Source: Promethearchaeota archaeon
GTDB taxonomy: Archaea > Asgardarchaeota > Lokiarchaeia > Sigyniarchaeales > SOKP01
Length of the DNA: 64,000 nucleotides
NCBI GenBank assembly: GCA_030603385.1
Contig: JAUVXW010000001.1
Span: 224,001 to 288,000 of the forward strand
Direction of reading: 5' to 3'
In this document: positions 18,752-53,139 of the stretch, piece by piece
How the letters are laid out: every line of letters starts with the position of its first letter
Numbering within the stretch: position 1 is the stretch's first letter
Notes under the pieces: model-generated
What the model saw: only the letters and a program-made list of their open reading frames with translations
Told to the model about the DNA's origin: nothing
Database searches by the model: none
Made by a program: the position numbers and the translations under genes

Positions 18752-19363
18752 TTAAAATCTTAAAGGTTCAGAAACATTCCTATAGTCATTTGCCATTTTT
18801 CTCGTCTCGGTGTTCCCACATCTTTCACATCTTAACTTATTATAACCAATTTTATCCAGAGGTGTTCCACAAATAACACAATCTGCATAAATTACACCAA
18901 GATCATTCCTGCTTGTACTTAAATTAAATTCGTTATAATTTAAGCTGATTACACGAGCTCTTATAATATCAGTAATTTGAAATGCATCTTGTATTTTTTC
19001 AATAAATCTATCTGAGATTTGAGAGACATGAATGTTACCAAAATAGCTTGAATTAAAATGAATTTTCTGATTTATCGTGTAAAAATTTGTACCAACTGAA
19101 TACTGCCGTAAAAATAAAATAGGACCAATAACGATATCTCCAATTTTTACAGTTTTTCGGTCTTTTTCTTGATGAGTTTTTATTTCAATTTTTCTTTTTT
19201 CATTGTCAATATCAATAAATCCTGATTTAGTCGCATAAATTTGTCCATCTTTAACAAAGGTTGATTGCTTATCAGGCAGAAACTCCTCAACGACTCCAAG
19301 ATACTGACCTGTGAGAACCAGATCGTCATTTTTTAAAGATTTTTTATCCAAAAGTATCAACAC
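18752..19363 (-). CDS. csl4: exosome RNA-binding subunit Csl4
   Basis: LGVVEEFLP, IHVSQIS, DIIRARV and LGVIYADCVICG...CERCGNTETRKMA motifs. Confidence 0.93.
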   Translation of the reverse strand: MLILLDKKSLKNDDLVLTGQYLGVVEEFLPDKQSTFVKDGQIYATKSGFIDIDNEKRKIEIKTHQEKDRKTVKIGDIVIGPILFLRQYSVGTNFYTINQKIHFNSSYFGNIHVSQISDRFIEKIQDAFQITDIIRARVISLNYNEFNLSTSRNDLGVIYADCVICGTPLDKIGYNKLRCERCGNTETRKMANDYRNVSEPLRF

Positions 19364-23531: not shown

Positions 23532-26500
23532 ATGGTCAAGATCATTGCTTCACTAAGAAATTTCCGTGATCGCATCAGAACCTCAATAAGCATAAAAACG
23601 CAAAATGTCTTATTTTTCTTCGCAATTTTTATGGTTGTATTCTTAGCCATTTTATTAAGGATCAGTCCAATTATTAGAGGACCACGATTAATTAAAGCGT
23701 TTGATCCTTGGATACAATGGTATAACGCAGAATATTTATCGGAACATACTTTATACGAATATTTTTCATGGCGTGATTTTAAGAGCTGGTATCCAACTGG
23801 ATTTAACCGTGGATCTCTACGTCCAGGTTTGACCTTTACAGTTGTTATTATATATAAAATATTAACCTTTTTTGGAATTCCTATCTCACTGTATGATATA
23901 TGCTATTTTTTCCCTGCAATTATAGGCGGTCTAACGGTATTAGTCATTTATTTCTTAGGAAAAGAAATTCTTGATCGAGGGACTGGACTAATTGCTGCTT
24001 TTTTTCTAGCCTTTAATCCCGGTTATATGCAGCGTACAATGGCAGGATTCTTTGATAATGAAACAATTGGTGTTTTTGCTACTCTATTGACATTTTTATT
24101 TCTTTTAAAAGCTATAAGAACTGGAAGATTTCTATTTTCTATTCTTGCTGGTCTTTCCTTAGGGTATTTGTCTCTAAGTTGGGGTGGTTATCAATTTGTT
24201 TACTTAATTATCCCATTACTTTGTATTATATTAATCCTTACTGAAAAATACAATGAAAATATACTAATTTCTTATGCTGTTGTAGAAGGAACTGGTTTGT
24301 TAATCTTTTCTTTATATACAGGTTTTAGTTATGATTCCTTATTCTCAGATTTAGAAATAGGTGGCATTTTTCTATTTACCATAATTTTAATTATATTTCA
24401 TATAATACAAACAAAAAAAGCCGAACAACCATCTTTATATAAAAATATTATAAATTTTGTAAAGTGGGGTTTTGTACCCGCATTAGTAATTGGTGCAATG
24501 ATTATATGGATTGCTCCTGATATTCTTCCTTTTGGTTTTGGTGGGCGGTTTCAAACGATCCTTAACCCTTTATTTCGCGAGGATGTAAGTCTAATAGCTT
24601 CAGTTGCAGAACAGATGCCAAGTTCATGGAGTGTTTTCTATTATAATACATTAATTCCATTAATTTTAACACCTCTAGGTGTTTATTTCTGTTTTAAAAT
24701 TTTAAATGCTCCAGAAATTTTCCTAATTGCGTTTGTAATTCTTATGTTCTATTTTACAGGAAGTATGATTCGGATTATATTAATGTTTTCACCTGCAGTT
24801 GCTTTGATGGGGGCATATGGATTAGTAAGTATTTTAAAAATTTTTGGTAGTTTTTTAGGAGAAAGGAGAGAGGGCATTAGTAGAAAACGTAAAAGACAAT
24901 TAAAAAGCACAATAGGGAATTCTGAAATCCTTGCTATATTTATGGTTGTTGGGTTTTTAGGTGTCGCTCAAATTGTTCATTCAACAGATATTTCAATTGA
25001 CCAATTTTCTTATAGTCAAATATCACCGGCGGGTGTTATTCATGATTGGGAAGAATCTCTGATGTGGATGAGATCTAACTTAGAAGGGACTGATGTAGTT
25101 GTATCTTGGTGGGATTACGGCTACTGGCTTACCCCAATAGGCAACGTCACTACAGTTAATGATAATGCAACCATGAATTCAACTAGAATCGGTTTAACAG
25201 GTATGGCTTTAATGCAGACTGATGAAATTTACAGTGCAAAAGCATTTCGTAGCTTAGGTGCAGATTATGTCTTAGTTTATTTTGGTTTAATGATTAGTGG
25301 ACTAGGAGGAGATGAAGGAAAGTGGCCTTGGATGGTAAGAATTTGCAATGACAGATATGCAAGTTATAAAAGGTTAGGTATGGAGGAAGATAATTGGGGT
25401 GAAGATTTTGTATTTAACGAAAGTGAGTACCAAAATCCTGATACTGGAAGAATGGGTGCTAAGTGGTTTAATAGTCAGTTAGTTAAGTTGATGTTTTATG
25501 GTGTCCCAACTAATCCGGCTGATATAGAGCAAGGAGACATAAGGGCGACTTATGTTAATACAATTAACAATGAAAATAATCCTACTGATGATGGTAAATT
25601 ATGGAAAGATTATATCCCTAACAATGGATTATATGATTTTAACATATTTTATCCAATATATATCTCAGCTTTAGGTTTAGTTAAACTTTATAAAATTGAC
25701 TATACAATCTTAGAATCTAGTTTTATGATAGAAGAAGCAGAACTTTTTGAAACTGGATATGCTACATTCAACCTAAAAAATACTGGTACGAAAGATTTAA
25801 CCATAAAAAGTGTTGAAGTAAATGGAATTGAATATGATTTTGTAATGCGTGAAAGTGGTGATCCTACTATAGTCGAAAGTGGTGATTCAGAAATGGTTTG
25901 GGTAGACATTAAATCGAAGGGTACAACTTTTCAGGAAGATGATGTTGTACATATTAATGTAACTGCAGAATCTGTAGCATTACAAGGAAAAAAATATGAA
26001 TTTTCGAATGTTACGAAAAATTTCTTTGTAAAAGAACCGGAACAAGGCGCTATTAGAATTAATAAGGAAAACAGTAAAGTAATCCAAAAAGATTCTTCAA
26101 CAACTGACATATATCTTGAAGTAGAAAACATTGGAGATACAATTGAAGTCTTGGAAAGGTTCTATCTCAATACCGATACTGTAGAAAATAGAATTAATCC
26201 TAATAACATTGATTATCTAAGTGGTTCATCTATTTTAAAACCAGGAGAAAAAGTAGATGTATATATAAATGATGTTTTTACTGACTTTTACCCTATTAGG
26301 AATTATAATAAGATTGGAGTTGCCAGTCCTAATAATGTAAGTGATGAGGTGTTATTTACTTCAACTATGGAAAATTATTCTATCTCTATCTTAAGTAAAG
26401 AGAGAATAATCTCCCCCGAAGCTTTAGCAGCAATTAATAGTAATGATAGAAAACATATTCCTATTAATTTCAATTTGTCTCATGGCTTTACTTATGAAAA

Positions 26501-27455
26501 TGGAAGTACAATACTTAAAATTAATGTGAAGAATACTGGAGATATTATATTTGGGATAGATTCAATTTATTTAACAGAATCTTTGATTGAAGTTGATTTT
26601 GCTGATTTCTATACAGAAAGTGGAAGTCTACTTTTGGATAAAGACGATGAGGATTTTATAATTATTGAAGCAACTGACTATGGGGATTTTGAAATCAATG
26701 ATGAGATTTTAGTTTGCATCACTGGAAGCTTCGGGACAACAGTGACTTCAGATATAGGCTATATTCATACAATAAAAGATGAACCAGATATTCAAATAAT
26801 TGAAAATATCGATAATACAATGACATCCTATATTTATGCAAATGAAACGGGGAAATTAGTAATTAAGAACACTGGAGATGAAACAGTAACAATTGATAAA
26901 ATATATGTAAATTCCTCTTTAACTAGTAATGTTACATATCTCTATGGAAATCCTTCTTTAGATGTTCAAGAATGTGCAATAATATCATTCGATATTCCGA
27001 ACTTGATGATAAATAAATCAAATGAGATGATTGTAAATGTTACAACAGCAATTCCATCAGTATATACTAATACAACATTAAATGCTTATGTGGATCCCGT
27101 ATATTATGATATAACAATTGATGATGATGGCACTTCTATAGAAAGTTCTTTTAACATGACTTTATTATTTACTAACACTGGAGAGTTCAATGTTACAATT
27201 GAGTCTGTTTATGTAAATGATACTTATATACCATTATCTCAACTTTATGCTTATTTTAATGATACTTGGGTACCATTAACTAGTAGTAATATAGAGGCTT
27301 TTGAAATTGGTGCTGGAAATTCAATGGAATTAACAATCAGTGTTAATGATCTCGAATTGATAACAGGACTAACGATTAATGTTGATGATGAAATAGTAAT
27401 CACTATACGAACAGAAGAAGGTGCGGAGATTATTCATGAAGAAATTGTTACATAA
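23532..27455 (+). CDS. aglB: oligosaccharyltransferase AglB/STT3 with long C-terminal repeat extension
   Basis: FDPW, GFFDNE, SVAEQ, SWWDYG, DNAT and DEGKWPWMVRI motifs; about 13 TM segments. Confidence 0.93.
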   Translation: MVKIIASLRNFRDRIRTSISIKTQNVLFFFAIFMVVFLAILLRISPIIRGPRLIKAFDPWIQWYNAEYLSEHTLYEYFSWRDFKSWYPTGFNRGSLRPGLTFTVVIIYKILTFFGIPISLYDICYFFPAIIGGLTVLVIYFLGKEILDRGTGLIAAFFLAFNPGYMQRTMAGFFDNETIGVFATLLTFLFLLKAIRTGRFLFSILAGLSLGYLSLSWGGYQFVYLIIPLLCIILILTEKYNENILISYAVVEGTGLLIFSLYTGFSYDSLFSDLEIGGIFLFTIILIIFHIIQTKKAEQPSLYKNIINFVKWGFVPALVIGAMIIWIAPDILPFGFGGRFQTILNPLFREDVSLIASVAEQMPSSWSVFYYNTLIPLILTPLGVYFCFKILNAPEIFLIAFVILMFYFTGSMIRIILMFSPAVALMGAYGLVSILKIFGSFLGERREGISRKRKRQLKSTIGNSEILAIFMVVGFLGVAQIVHSTDISIDQFSYSQISPAGVIHDWEESLMWMRSNLEGTDVVVSWWDYGYWLTPIGNVTTVNDNATMNSTRIGLTGMALMQTDEIYSAKAFRSLGADYVLVYFGLMISGLGGDEGKWPWMVRICNDRYASYKRLGMEEDNWGEDFVFNESEYQNPDTGRMGAKWFNSQLVKLMFYGVPTNPADIEQGDIRATYVNTINNENNPTDDGKLWKDYIPNNGLYDFNIFYPIYISALGLVKLYKIDYTILESSFMIEEAELFETGYATFNLKNTGTKDLTIKSVEVNGIEYDFVMRESGDPTIVESGDSEMVWVDIKSKGTTFQEDDVVHINVTAESVALQGKKYEFSNVTKNFFVKEPEQGAIRINKENSKVIQKDSSTTDIYLEVENIGDTIEVLERFYLNTDTVENRINPNNIDYLSGSSILKPGEKVDVYINDVFTDFYPIRNYNKIGVASPNNVSDEVLFTSTMENYSISILSKERIISPEALAAINSNDRKHIPINFNLSHGFTYENGSTILKINVKNTGDIIFGIDSIYLTESLIEVDFADFYTESGSLLLDKDDEDFIIIEATDYGDFEINDEILVCITGSFGTTVTSDIGYIHTIKDEPDIQIIENIDNTMTSYIYANETGKLVIKNTGDETVTIDKIYVNSSLTSNVTYLYGNPSLDVQECAIISFDIPNLMINKSNEMIVNVTTAIPSVYTNTTLNAYVDPVYYDITIDDDGTSIESSFNMTLLFTNTGEFNVTIESVYVNDTYIPLSQLYAYFNDTWVPLTSSNIEAFEIGAGNSMELTISVNDLELITGLTINVDDEIVITIRTEEGAEIIHEEIVT

Positions 27456-27478
27456 GAGACACCGCGGATATACTTCAA

Positions 27479-27502
27479 TTTTTTTTTTACTGCTTTTTTT
27501 TT
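27479..27502 (+). terminator. poly-U terminator after aglB
   Basis: T10 and T9 runs. Confidence 0.5.
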
Positions 27503-27609
27503 AGAAAAAATCAAAAGATATTATTCATTAGAATATCTATAGACTTATCTTTTATATATTATATTTTGTATAAATTAAAAATTAATTAAACATAATAAGT
27601 AAAAGTTAT

Positions 27610-29646
27610 ATGATTATGGACTTTCAATTACAAACTGATTTTGAACCTGCTGGTGATCAACCCTTAGCTATTCAAACTCTAACCAAGAATATTAAAAATG
27701 GTAAAAGGTTTCAAACCTTATTAGGTGCCACTGGGACAGGAAAAACTTTTACAATTGCTCAAATAATACAAGAAGTTCAGAAACCAACATTAGTAATGTC
27801 TCCTAATAAAACATTATGTGCTCAATTGTATAATGAGTTTAAAGAACTCTTTCCTGAAAATGCCGTTCACTACTTCGTTTCTTACTATGATTATTATCAG
27901 CCAGAAAGAATATTTCATTAAGAAATATCTCTGGAAGCATATATGCCTGTTTCAGGGATGTTTATAGAAAAAGACTTCAGTGTGAACGAAGAAATAGAAA
28001 GATTACGATTGGCTGCCACTCACGCTATCAGAACAAGAAAAGATGTTATAATAGTTGCTTCTGTTTCTTGTCTTTATGGAATTGGGAACCCGGAGGTTTG
28101 GACAGCAGTTTCTCTCAGTTTAGAAACAGGGCAAGCTATTAACCGAGGGGAAATGTTGAAAAGACTTATTAGTATTAATTATGAAAGAAATAATATCGAT
28201 TTTAAACCAGGTATAGTAAGGGTAAGAGGAGACATTATAGATATTTGGCCAGCATATTTAATTAATGCTATACGAATTTCACTTTTTGGGGATGAGATTG
28301 AATCAATTCAAGAGATACATCCAATTTCAAGTGAAGTATTAAATGATTTACCTAATTGCCGAATTTTCCCTGCTACTCATTTTATAATTCCAGAAGAGAA
28401 TAAAGTTAAAGCTCTTGAATCAATAAAGATTGAATTGAAAGATCAACTTGATAAATTTAGGAAAGCGAAAAAGTATGCCGAGGCACAGCTATTAGAAAGA
28501 CGCATTAAATTTGATCTGGAAATGTTAAGAGAAATGGGTTGGTGTAAAGGTATAGAAAATTATTCTAGGCATTTAGATAGAAGAGCTCCTGGTTCTCCTC
28601 CCATGACATTAATCGACTACTTCCCAGAAGATTTTCTTATTGTAGTTGATGAATCTCATGTTTCAATTCCTCAAATTCACGGGCAAATAGGTGGAGATAG
28701 ATCTCGTAAAAAAAATCTTGTGGATTATGGTTGGCGTTTACCAAGTGCCTATGATAATAGGCCCCTTACTTTTGATGAATGGGAAGATAAAATTAAATAC
28801 TCAATCTTCATGAGTGCTACACCCGGAGATTATGAATTAAAGAAAAGCGGGGAAATTTCAGCAGAACAAATAATTAGACCTACTGGTCTCGTAGATCCTC
28901 AAGTTGAGGTAAGACCTGCGAAGAATCAAATTGATGATTTGTTAGGAGAAATTAGAAAAGTCGTAGACAATAATGGTAGAGTTTTAGTTACTACACTTAC
29001 AAAGAGAATGGCTGAAGATATTGCGGATTATTATTCCGAGTTGGGGGTTAAGATAGAGTATTTACACTCAGAGGTAGATACTGTAGAAAGATTTGAGATT
29101 TTAAGGCAATTAAGATATGGAACTCATGATGTCATAGTTGGGATAAATCTATTGAGAGAGGGATTAGATCTACCTGAAGTTAAATTAGTTGCGATTTTAG
29201 ATGCTGATAAACTTGGATTTCTACGCGATAAAAGGTCTTTAATTCAAACAATTGGAAGAGCTTCTAGAAACGTAGAAGGGAGAGCAATTTTATATGGGGA
29301 TAGAATGTCTGAAGCGATGAAAACGGCAATAGACGAGACCAATAGGAGGAGGAATATACAGATTGCGTACAATGAGAAAAATAATATTACACCCCAAACA
29401 ATTAAGAAAAATATTTTAAAATCTTTATCTGAGGAAAAAGAATATAAAGAAAGAGAAGTGAAAAGATTAAAGCAAAGCGTTAAAGCGAAAATAGAAAGAT
29501 TACAAGAGGAAGGGGATATTGAGATTGTGATTGAATATCTTGAAAATAAGATGTATATGGCTGCTAAGGAACTTCGATTTGAAGACGCAGCATATTTGCG
29601 TGATAAAATTAAGGAGATAAAAAAGGCTTATAAAAAAACATCATGA
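27610..29646 (+). CDS. uvrB: excinuclease ABC subunit B, interrupted; proposed join(27610..27906,27937..29646), 668 aa
   Basis: [22 protein letters not shown]|[27 protein letters not shown] and UVR domain; both halves in the same frame with no other lesion. Confidence 0.93.
27907..27936 (+). other. candidate bulge-helix-bulge intron in uvrB (30 nt, contains in-frame TAA)
   Basis: 4-bp helix CCAG/CTGG, 3-nt bulges AA^A and AA^G, internal stem-loop; excision restores CCA GAA GCA TAT. Confidence 0.75.
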
Positions 29647-50268: not shown

Positions 50269-53139
50269 ATGCCTGATTATATCGTCATTAAGGGCGCTAG
50301 ACAGAATAACTTAAAGAATATTGATGTAAAAATTCCACGCAATAAGCTTGTAGTTGTAACTGGCATTAGTGGGAGCGGAAAAAGTTCCTTAGTTCTTAAT
50401 ACCCTGTACGCGGAGGGACAGCGCAGATTTCTGGAATCATTATCAAGTTATGCGAGACAATTCTTGGGTGAAATGGATAAGCCAGATGTAGATTCAATTG
50501 AAGGATTGTCGCCTGCAATTGCAATAGAACAAAAGCCTCTTTCTAAAAATCCAAGGAGTACGGTAGGAACTGTCACAGAAATCCACGATTATTATAGGCT
50601 ATTATTTGCTAACGTTGGTGTCCCACATTGCCCCAATTGTGGAAAAGAAATAAGACCTCAGACACCACAACAAATTATTCAAATACTTCTAAGTTCTATT
50701 AAAGAAAATCAGAAATTTATAATTAAAGCCCCAGTTATAAGGGATCGAAAGGGGGAATATAAAGATCTTCTACAAGATTTAAGAAAGCAGGGATATGTAA
50801 GAGTAGAAGTAGATGGGATTCAATACACTTTAGATGAAGAGATAGTGATGAATAAGAATGTGAAGCATAATATCAATGTAGTCCTTGACAGGCTAGTGAT
50901 GAGAAAAGATATAAAGACAAGATTAGCTGATTCGATTGAAAACGCCTTAGATCTAGCAGAAGGATTAGTTATTATTGAGGTTATTGACGAAGGAGAACAG
51001 ACATATTCAGAACATCTTGCATGTATTGATTGTGGAATCTCTTTTCCTCAATTAGACCATAAAATGTTTTCATTTAATATCCCCCATGGAAGTTGCAGAT
51101 ATTGCAGTGGTTTAGGTACAGTTATGGAATTCGATTATGGATTAGTATTAGGAAACGATTTAACTGTACCACTTAACGACACTCCAATCAGAGACATTCC
51201 AGGATTTGGTTCTTTAACTGGATACTCTTGGCAAACTATAATGCAGGTAGCGAGCCATTATGGATTTAATGCTAATAAGACTCCATTGCAGGAAATTGAG
51301 CCGGAGATGTTACACAAACTATTGTTTGGTTCTGAAAATGAATCAATAAAACTTCATTTTGAAAGTAATGGAAATGATTATAGGAACCAAAATGGTGAAT
51401 TTAAATCCTCATGGGATGTTGTCAGACCTTTTGAGGGTATAATTCCAATATTGCATAGAAGATATATGGAGACTCGATCGGAATGGGCTCGGGAGGTCTA
51501 TGAAAATTTTATGAACCGGATAGCGTGTCCTCAATGTAAGGGAAAAAAATTAAAACCAGAGAGCTTAGCAGTAACTATTAATGATCTGAACATAGCACAA
51601 TTATCAGATTTACCCGTAAAGAAATCAACTAAATTTTTCAAATCATTACAGTTAAGTGAAACTGATAAAACCATAGCAAAAGAAATATTAAAAGAAATTA
51701 TGGATAGATTGTCTTTTTTAGAAAATGTAGGTTTAGATTACATTTCATTAAGCCGTCGCTCAGACACTTTATCTGTTGGAGAAGCAGAAAGAATAAGATT
51801 AGCAACTCAATTAGGTTCTAGTTTAGTAGGTGTATTATATGTATTAGATGAACCAAGCGTTGGTTTACATCAACGAGATATAGGTCGTTTAATAAATATG
51901 TTGAAAAAGTTAAGGGATTTAGGTAATACTGTTATTGTAGTTGAACATGATGAGGCAATAATGCAAAATGCAGATCATATTATCGACTTAGGGCCCTTAG
52001 CTGGTGAAAAAGGGGGTGAAATTGTAGCAGAGGGGCCAATGGAAAAAATAATTAAAGCTAATACTTTAACTGGAAGATATCTGTCAGGAAAGGAAAAAAT
52101 TGAAATACCTCAGAATCGACGTAAATCGAATAATGAATTTCTTCAAGTTATAGGAGCAAGAGAAAATAATCTGAAGAATATTAATGTGAAAATACCCTTA
52201 GGGCTATTTACATGTGTAACAGGCGTTTCAGGTGCTGGTAAGACTAGTTTGATTATCGATTGTCTCTATAAAGGATTACACAATCTTATAAATACACGTA
52301 GTTCAAAAATCAGGGAAGGGGATTTTGATACTATAGAAGGTTATGAAAAAATAGATAAAATGATTAATATTGACCAATCTCCTATAGGAAGAACTCCAAG
52401 ATCAGTTCCCTCAACATATACAAAAGCTTTAGATTACATTAGAGATATTTTTGCCCAATTACCTGAATCAAAAGAAAGAGGATATAAAAAAGGTAGATTT
52501 AGTTTCAACACTAAAGCAGGTCATTGTAAAAAGTGTAAGGGTACTGGATATATCCTAAAAGAAATGTACTTCTTACCTGATGTTTATATTAAATGTGATT
52601 TATGTAACGGAAAAAGATATAATGCAGAAACATTAGAAATTAAATACAGAGAGAAAACGATTTCAAATGTTTTAGAAATGACATTCAATCAAGCTTTAGA
52701 ATTTTTTGACAGCTTTCCGAAGTTAAAGAGAACTTTACAAACAGTAGTAGATGTAGGTTTAGGTTATTTAGAATTAGGTCAATCATCAACTACTCTGAGT
52801 GGTGGAGAATCCCAAAGATTAAAAATCGCAAGGGAATTAAGAAAAACTAGTACAGGAAATACTCTTTATATCTTAGATGAACCTACAACTGGATTACACA
52901 TGTATGATATTAAATTCTTATTAGATGTACTTCAAAAATTGGTTGATAAAGGTAACACAGTAGTTATTATTGAACATAACATGGATATAATAAAATCTGT
53001 TGATTATATTATAGATCTTGGACCTGAGGGTGGAGAAAAGGGTGGAGATATTGTTGTAACAGGCACTCCCGAAGAGATTATTAAAATAAATCATTCTTTT
53101 ACTGCTCAGTTTTTAAATAAATATCTAAATAACAAATAA
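50269..53139 (+). CDS. uvrA: excinuclease ABC subunit A
   Basis: GARQNNLKNI, TGISGSGKSSL, Zn fingers, second ABC domain TGVSGAGKT, LSGGE and LDEPTTGLH. Confidence 0.97.
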   Translation: MPDYIVIKGARQNNLKNIDVKIPRNKLVVVTGISGSGKSSLVLNTLYAEGQRRFLESLSSYARQFLGEMDKPDVDSIEGLSPAIAIEQKPLSKNPRSTVGTVTEIHDYYRLLFANVGVPHCPNCGKEIRPQTPQQIIQILLSSIKENQKFIIKAPVIRDRKGEYKDLLQDLRKQGYVRVEVDGIQYTLDEEIVMNKNVKHNINVVLDRLVMRKDIKTRLADSIENALDLAEGLVIIEVIDEGEQTYSEHLACIDCGISFPQLDHKMFSFNIPHGSCRYCSGLGTVMEFDYGLVLGNDLTVPLNDTPIRDIPGFGSLTGYSWQTIMQVASHYGFNANKTPLQEIEPEMLHKLLFGSENESIKLHFESNGNDYRNQNGEFKSSWDVVRPFEGIIPILHRRYMETRSEWAREVYENFMNRIACPQCKGKKLKPESLAVTINDLNIAQLSDLPVKKSTKFFKSLQLSETDKTIAKEILKEIMDRLSFLENVGLDYISLSRRSDTLSVGEAERIRLATQLGSSLVGVLYVLDEPSVGLHQRDIGRLINMLKKLRDLGNTVIVVEHDEAIMQNADHIIDLGPLAGEKGGEIVAEGPMEKIIKANTLTGRYLSGKEKIEIPQNRRKSNNEFLQVIGARENNLKNINVKIPLGLFTCVTGVSGAGKTSLIIDCLYKGLHNLINTRSSKIREGDFDTIEGYEKIDKMINIDQSPIGRTPRSVPSTYTKALDYIRDIFAQLPESKERGYKKGRFSFNTKAGHCKKCKGTGYILKEMYFLPDVYIKCDLCNGKRYNAETLEIKYREKTISNVLEMTFNQALEFFDSFPKLKRTLQTVVDVGLGYLELGQSSTTLSGGESQRLKIARELRKTSTGNTLYILDEPTTGLHMYDIKFLLDVLQKLVDKGNTVVIIEHNMDIIKSVDYIIDLGPEGGEKGGDIVVTGTPEEIIKINHSFTAQFLNKYLNNK

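Follow-up and report, generated by a model that had tools for sequence, protein, structure and literature searches.

The uvrB gene of a Promethearchaeota archaeon (GenBank assembly GCA_030603385.1) lies at positions 27610-29646, on the forward strand, of the 64,000-nt stretch of genomic DNA analyzed here (contig JAUVXW010000001.1, positions 224,001 to 288,000; hereafter the window), and it is interrupted after the codons for YYDYYQPE by 30 nt, 27907-27936. This insert is very probably a messenger RNA (mRNA) intron of a relaxed bulge-helix-bulge (BHB) type, which would be cut out by the endonuclease EndA and whose exons would be joined by the ligase RtcB.

The uvrB Gene and its Insert

Read in frame, the insert adds ten codons, R-I-F-H-stop-E-I-S-L-E, ahead of AYMPVSG, and uvrB carries no second lesion besides it. 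An earlier model reading of the window, made from its letters alone (the sequence-only reading), had described a gene split by exactly 30 nt with an in-frame TAA and otherwise undamaged, and the open reading frames (ORFs) and Pfam assignments agree with this description. Exon 1 is 74-99% identical to the N-termini of UvrB from relatives. When the insert is removed, the joined exons encode 668 aa, compared with 666-668 aa in intronless relatives, and the product has the full UvrB domain set in Pfam and the conserved ten-residue segment seen in all intronless relatives. Because GAA is repeated at both ends of the insert, boundaries placed as much as 3 nt further left would give the same product; the boundaries 27907-27936 were placed by the EndA cleavage rule described below. 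The features of the gene, of the predicted RNA fold and of the related loci in the same genome are collected in Table 1.

The insert is considered to be real DNA because it is seen in independent assemblies. Confirmation in other DNA data had been proposed in the sequence-only reading, and contigs from two further, independent studies cross the insert with no gap. A pattern scan of metagenomes gave just one further contig, from the Joint Genome Institute (JGI), identical to the variant of a related species, G019. An assembly artefact was rejected on the ground that the insert occurs in many independent assemblies, and a group I/II intron or an intein was rejected on grounds of length, neither fitting into 30 nt that contain a stop codon. 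No known RNA family was found by Rfam in 27400-28400.

Table 1. Coordinates of the uvrB exons, the candidate intron, its predicted structural elements and related loci. Positions are those of the window unless a contig of the genome is given.
Feature	Position	Strand	Remarks
uvrB exon 1	27610-27906	+	99 codons, ending YYDYYQPE; from the ORF list and Pfam ResIII/DEAD
Candidate mini-intron, relaxed BHB (HBh')	27907-27936	+	30 nt; in-frame TAA at 27919-27921
uvrB exon 2	27937-29646	+	569 codons and stop, beginning AYMPVSG; Pfam UvrB_inter, Helicase_C, UvrB, UVR
Predicted central helix H, 5' strand CCAG	27901-27904	+	Pro codon and G of Glu; pairs with 27931-27934
Predicted 5' bulge AAA	27905-27907	+	From geometry; predicted cut after A27906
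Predicted inner helix h' and loop	27908-27930	+	27908-27916 with 27922-27930; 5-nt loop AUUAA, 27917-27921
Predicted central helix H, 3' strand CUGG	27931-27934	+	Intron; pairs with 27901-27904
Predicted 3' splice-site "bulge" AAG	27935-27937	+	Predicted cut after A27936; no real outer helix beyond
uvrA	50269-53139	+	Intact, 956 aa; Pfam UvrA_DNA-bind in an ORF of 969 codons
rpoA' (RNA polymerase subunit A'), insert	contig 4, 220013-220042		30 nt inside TYDEDG/LPIP, with an in-frame TGA; some 4 kb before the start of the window
RNase HII (L128), insert	contig 17, 18136-18165		30 nt, TAA, inside catalytic DEAGR/GP
AMP/thymidine-phosphorylase-like gene (L125), insert	contig 10, 126771-126800		30 nt, inside KHS/TGG
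MoxR-like AAA ATPase gene (L126), insert	contig 26	-	32 nt, after Walker B
LOR-family gene (L127), insert	contig 55, 17369-17398		30 nt
uL11 (L121), split	contig 41, about 68090-68130	-	Single gene; N-terminal strand (KALVTGG) and GPPIGP motif in different frames, about 37 nt apart

Inserts at the Same Site in Related Species

Inserts at the same site with covarying stems, which the sequence-only reading had suggested seeking in related genomes, were found in eight species and fall into three sequence classes. Among 54 species of the same Promethearchaeota genus, uvrB exon 1 was found in 47, and eight of these, each with a single exon-1 match, carry an insert exactly between QPE and AY; QPEAY is unbroken in the other uvrB loci that were read. 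Class A comprises the inserts of the window's genome, G019, G002 and G060 (30, 30, 29 and 30 nt, respectively). The class B inserts of G008, G021 and G046, 32 nt each, are unrelated to class A in sequence, and the class C insert of G011, also 32 nt, has a different sequence again. The reading frame is shifted by the 29- and 32-nt inserts, and classes A and C contain in-frame stops. Genomes of the same order outside the genus, whose uvrB open frames are mostly 528-743 aa, showed no insert, and neither did the 75 other loci from a scan of the genome collection.

The three classes have a common design. In the minimum-energy folds of all eight carriers, CCAG or CCGG in the exon pairs with CUGG, CCGG or CCGA, which is followed by only two more intron bases; the remaining insert sequence makes up a hairpin of 8-10 bp with a loop of about 5 nt. 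All four pairs of the central helix are present in six species, and the third base of the Pro codon covaries with the intron, being in an A-U pair in five species and a G-C pair in three. Taken over the four central pairs and six outer stem pairs, 84.8% of positions are paired, vs. 25-56% after displacement of the partners by 1-3 columns. Six of the ten pairs change on both sides (five of the six outer stem pairs do so), and none of 500 shuffles reached the observed pairing or covariation; these numbers are descriptive, not a formal test, and overstate independence, the eight carriers amounting to about three independent lineages. If the RNA is cut two nucleotides past either strand of the central helix, P-E-A-Y is obtained in every one of the eight species, irrespective of insert length. 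The sequence-only reading had applied this rule to the window, obtaining P-E-A-Y and a 668-aa product, and the rule thus extends to every carrier.

Seven carriers group with the intronless species G048 in the UvrB tree, in a clade with 100/100 support where G048 is sister to the carrier G060. The uvrB of G048 (L023) reads a clean QPEAYMP, and its position among carriers indicates a precise loss of the insert. On the other hand, G011 is placed in the other main clade of the tree, among intronless species, which suggests either that the intron arrived a second time or that it is old and many species have lost it. The flanking exon of G011 resembles those of its own relatives and not class A, so that a long conversion tract is improbable.

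Apart from these inserts, the N-terminal region of uvrB contains an interruption of about 1.5 kb, in one 1200-codon open frame, in two congeneric species, G004 (contig 107, 6817-8685) and G051 (contig 14, 27747-29627). This interruption, near the Walker A region, looks like an intein.

Predicted Fold and Proposed Processing of the Insert RNA

The pairings proposed in the sequence-only reading are all present in the window. The inner stem has seven Watson-Crick pairs, one G-U pair and one A.C mismatch. The 42-nt core has a fold z of -3.2, with one of 200 shuffles folding as well, and the required register, comprising four of four central pairs and at least seven stem pairs, occurs in just 9 of 200,000 shuffled inserts.

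In the pre-mRNA, a helix would form between the last bases of exon 1, CCAG, and the CUGG close to the insert's 3' end, while the remainder of the insert would form a 9-bp hairpin. A two-subunit EndA is predicted to cut after A27906 and A27936, the second nucleotide past each strand of the 4-bp helix. RtcB would then ligate the exons, joining CCAGAA to GCAUAU to give P-E-A-Y and the 668-aa UvrB, and the intron would probably be freed as a small circle. From the sequence we infer cleavage, ligation and constitutive removal; constitutive removal is the simpler reading, because there is no sign of regulation and similar mini-introns are found in housekeeping genes.

Splicing Enzymes of the Host

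The genome encodes one RtcB, on contig 39, and two EndA paralogues. That of 198 aa, on contig 44, can be aligned over its whole length with the catalytic subunit of Aeropyrum pernix EndA and keeps the Tyr/His/Lys residues, as well as the lysine of the specific loop (K44 in A. pernix, K56 here). The 200-aa paralogue, on contig 9, lacks the histidine and therefore looks like a structural subunit. Asgard archaea possess a two-subunit EndA with an L1 loop that allows cleavage of the relaxed HBh' and hBH motifs, and the loop lysine has been linked to the cleavage of relaxed motifs (PMC5829648).

Only about 20 tRNA genes, seven of them with introns, were called by ARAGORN in this 94%-complete genome, together with odd calls (Pyl, SeC and a 4-base anticodon). 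Non-canonical introns, which have been described in other Asgard archaea as masking tRNA genes, probably conceal many of them here.

Selection on the Interrupted Gene

In all eight carriers, the frame of exon 2 stays open over at least 489 codons, up to the limit of each locus retrieved. The ratio of nonsynonymous to synonymous substitution rates (dN/dS) between carriers is 0.03-0.12 at dS 0.18-1.7, the same as in intronless pairs, and by this measure both exons are evidently under strong purifying selection. Relaxed selection, which the sequence-only reading had regarded as the mark of a young pseudogene, was thus not seen. The genome also contains an intact uvrC, in addition to uvrA, whose product acts with UvrB in one repair pathway.

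Similar Inserts in Other Genes of the Genome

Inserts of the same design interrupt further genes of this genome (Table 1). The predicted layout of the mini-introns is 1 nt, a 23-nt hairpin, 4 nt pairing with the upstream exon and 2 nt. The rpoA' insert has a stem of 9 bp with a loop of 5 nt, and 4 nt that form three of four possible pairs with the exon, while that of RNase HII has the helix UGGU/ACCA and the bulges AGA and AAA, and splits a codon as AG/A. The AMP/thymidine-phosphorylase-like, MoxR-like and LOR-family genes came from a geometry scan, in which a 4-bp helix with bulges and a nested stem was combined with an ORF-joining test genome-wide; a Pfam domain is broken at each of the three junctions. 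Shorter uL11 calls of 146 aa in public data suggest that the uL11 genes of relatives are split too; a query with uL11 exon 2 for the spliced-form protein gave nothing above 94% identity. Other hits of the scan were rejected: those near 18762 and 19413 on the minus strand of the window are ordinary gene junctions, and three further top hits (contigs 13, 31, and 20) joined unrelated neighbors.

On balance, we favor the view that the uvrB intron belongs to a population of uniform EndA-dependent mini-introns of about 30 nt in the coding genes of the genus, including the essential rpoA' and uL11, and that this population is in active turnover, with two probable independent arrivals and one precise loss in uvrB.

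Weighing the Intron and its Alternatives

A number of observations count against the intron or its wider distribution. The outer exon-exon helix (h) consists of one pair, G27900-C27938, followed by mismatches, and is not conserved among species, as the sequence-only reading had recognized in proposing a relaxed substrate; the 3' "bulge" is merely single-stranded, with no outer helix to close it. As judged from the sequence, the motif is thus non-canonical, of the relaxed HBh' class and not of the strict hBHBh' form. The absent outer helix is no obstacle in principle, because an Asgard-type EndA with the loop accepts relaxed motifs (PMC5829648). The 4-bp helix with two 3-nt bulges described in the sequence-only reading is permitted by the sequence, but the minimum-energy fold adds the pair A27905-U27930, giving a 5-bp helix and a 2-nt bulge, and the unconstrained fold is more stable than the strict 4-bp/3-nt form by about 2.4 kcal/mol. 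This 5-bp form is favored in classes A and C, the window included, while class B has an exact 3-nt 5' bulge; in two class B species the central helix has three of its four pairs. Contigs from two metatranscriptome runs with related sequence span 28377-29474 only, within exon 2, and do not reach the junction. An exon-1 query for longer spliced-form proteins in a collection of 5.8 billion proteins returned nothing above 94% identity, the top matches coming from the intronless G048-like lineage. The same geometry, for which the sequence-only reading had suggested scanning other split genes, was found in several, but the scan as a whole gave 2458 candidates vs. 2314-2534 in controls with the cuts shifted by 1-2 nt, and stricter filters behaved alike. 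Adjacent co-directional genes swamp the signal, and this accounts for the lack of excess; the other introns were singled out by homology, not by statistics.

The alternatives differ in what becomes of the insert. Bypass elements, such as T4 gene 60 and the byps of Magnusiomyces mitochondria, are retained in the RNA and need matched take-off and landing codons. The uvrB inserts are like them in being short, hairpin-forming and stop-containing inserts in genes that are still functional, and about 30 nt is within the size range of the known elements. A ribosome hopping from a GAA take-off codon to a matching landing codon would suit class A, in which the insert is flanked by GAA on both sides, has a hairpin and contains a stop soon after the take-off codon. 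However, the need for matched codons fails in three of the eight inserts: directly ahead of the Ala at which the frame resumes, five species have GAA or GAG but three have AAA, AAG or GAC, where Glu-tRNA could not re-pair. Moreover, class B has no stop after the take-off codon, and the RNase HII insert splits a codon and is flanked by no matching landing codon. Neither the pairing of the exon with the 3' end of the insert nor the covariation of the Pro codon is predicted by bypass, which we consider highly improbable. A split gene is a slightly poorer candidate still. Here, polypeptides of 103 and 567 aa, the second starting from the ATG at 27943, would assemble into a working UvrB, as might be imagined from the ATG right after the insert (AY-M-P) and from the separate calling of both ORFs. 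Yet the break falls inside a conserved helicase-core motif, the Met is replaced by Leu in several intronless relatives (AYLP) and is therefore not a conserved start, and no Shine-Dalgarno-like run is seen in the insert. A split gene would also leave unexplained the exon-insert helix, the covariation and the conservation of frameshifting inserts, and the same design splits rpoA' and RNase HII within short catalytic or structural motifs.

The least probable alternative is a young pseudogene, in which a scar or the footprint of a small mobile element, with GAA as a target duplication, would have killed uvrB. Every carrier does have an in-frame stop or a frameshift, and GAA is present at both ends of the class A inserts. 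Against this, dN/dS has stayed at 0.03-0.12 between carriers at dS 0.5-1.7 while the insert was carried, exon 2 has a long open frame in all eight, there are no further lesions, uvrA and uvrC are intact, and the structure is kept while the sequence of the insert changes. A somewhat different alternative accepts the BHB intron but makes its removal regulated, so that splicing would serve as a switch for repair; the sequence-only reading had raised this possibility by analogy with HAC1/XBP1. Expression must indeed go through a splicing step, and nothing further speaks for a switch. The intron is missing from close relatives (G048 and most of the genus), the same mini-introns occur in rpoA' and other housekeeping genes, and no sensor or alternative structure was seen; this part of the sequence-only reading is not supported, and a regulated switch is very unlikely. 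The uvrB intron is better regarded as an element that is tolerated than as a switch dedicated to repair.

Genomic Context and Significance

The window is part of contig 4 of a 3.9-Mb metagenome-assembled genome in 58 contigs. The congeneric uvrB loci belong to Promethearchaeota/Promethearchaeia, which makes the host a Loki-type Asgard archaeon, in agreement with the Asgard host proposed in the sequence-only reading. The sequence is also present in metagenomes of marine sediments, cold seeps, the subsurface and hydrothermal vents, in 12 studies altogether. Directly upstream of uvrB, at 23532-27455, is a gene for an STT3/AglB oligosaccharyltransferase that is unusually long (1307 aa), with a large C-terminal extension. 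The metatranscriptome contigs come from one study and correspond, over 28377-29474, to uvrB exon 2 of a relative with about 93-94% identity; the uvrB of this relative may be transcribed, or DNA may have been carried over in the library. Loose ends at 27906 in DNA runs were considered as spliced forms and rejected, as they belong to the uvrB of unrelated organisms.

Together with its sister introns in rpoA', RNase HII and other genes, the candidate uvrB intron would add Asgard archaea to the organisms with protein-catalyzed mRNA splicing, and points to such splicing being common in this lineage. Annotation is affected, as gene callers split or truncate genes of this kind. The intron also bears on how tRNA-type introns arrive and persist, and on the debate over the origins of introns near the root of the eukaryotes. 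If a population of mini-introns does exist, the closest prokaryotic relatives of eukaryotes would include a lineage in which mRNA is routinely spliced by protein enzymes and introns spread through coding genes.

Comparison with Known Systems

The mRNAs of HAC1 and XBP1 undergo regulated non-spliceosomal splicing by Ire1, which is activated by stress, and tRNA ligase or RtcB. The proposed splicing of uvrB is similar in that a small mRNA intron would be cut out and the exons ligated by proteins outside the spliceosome, with RtcB-type ligation as in animals. It differs in that the Ire1 nuclease recognizes paired stem-loops and in that HAC1/XBP1 splicing is regulated, of which there is no sign in uvrB.

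Within archaea, the closest precedent is the cbf5 pre-mRNA of Crenarchaeota, which has a BHB intron inside the coding sequence, with both gain and loss (Watanabe 2002; Yokobori 2009, PMC2738675). Like the cbf5 intron, that of uvrB is short, lies inside the coding sequence, has the predicted fold of an EndA substrate, must be removed to give the full-length protein and is restricted to a lineage with secondary loss. Unlike it, the uvrB intron concerns a different gene and phylum (Promethearchaeota/Asgard), has a minimal relaxed HBh' form of uniform length, about 30 nt, is one of several in the genome and probably arose twice at one site; in addition, cbf5 splicing has been demonstrated experimentally, whereas the uvrB intron is known here from sequence. 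The HVO_1309 mRNA of Haloferax volcanii has a BHB intron in its 5' untranslated region (PMC7714728). It resembles the proposed uvrB case as an mRNA on which EndA acts, but that intron is situated in the untranslated leader and leaves the frame uninterrupted. In the same 2020 report, cbf5 is the only other archaeal mRNA example (PMC7714728); no later report of BHB introns in Asgard or Lokiarchaeota protein-coding mRNAs was found in the searchable literature, and mRNA introns are unmentioned in a 2026 preprint on Asgard tRNA introns (bioRxiv 10.64898/2026.10.13.758758). The non-canonical and multiple tRNA introns of Asgard and TACK archaea (PMC5829648; bioRxiv 10.64898/2026.10.13.758758) share with the uvrB intron the same predicted two-subunit EndA with the specific loop, RtcB, the relaxed motif class, the contribution of half of the motif by the exon, and signs of repeated gain. 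What sets the uvrB intron apart from them is its host, an mRNA in which the exon half of the motif also codes for protein, as the Pro codon whose third base covaries with the intron.

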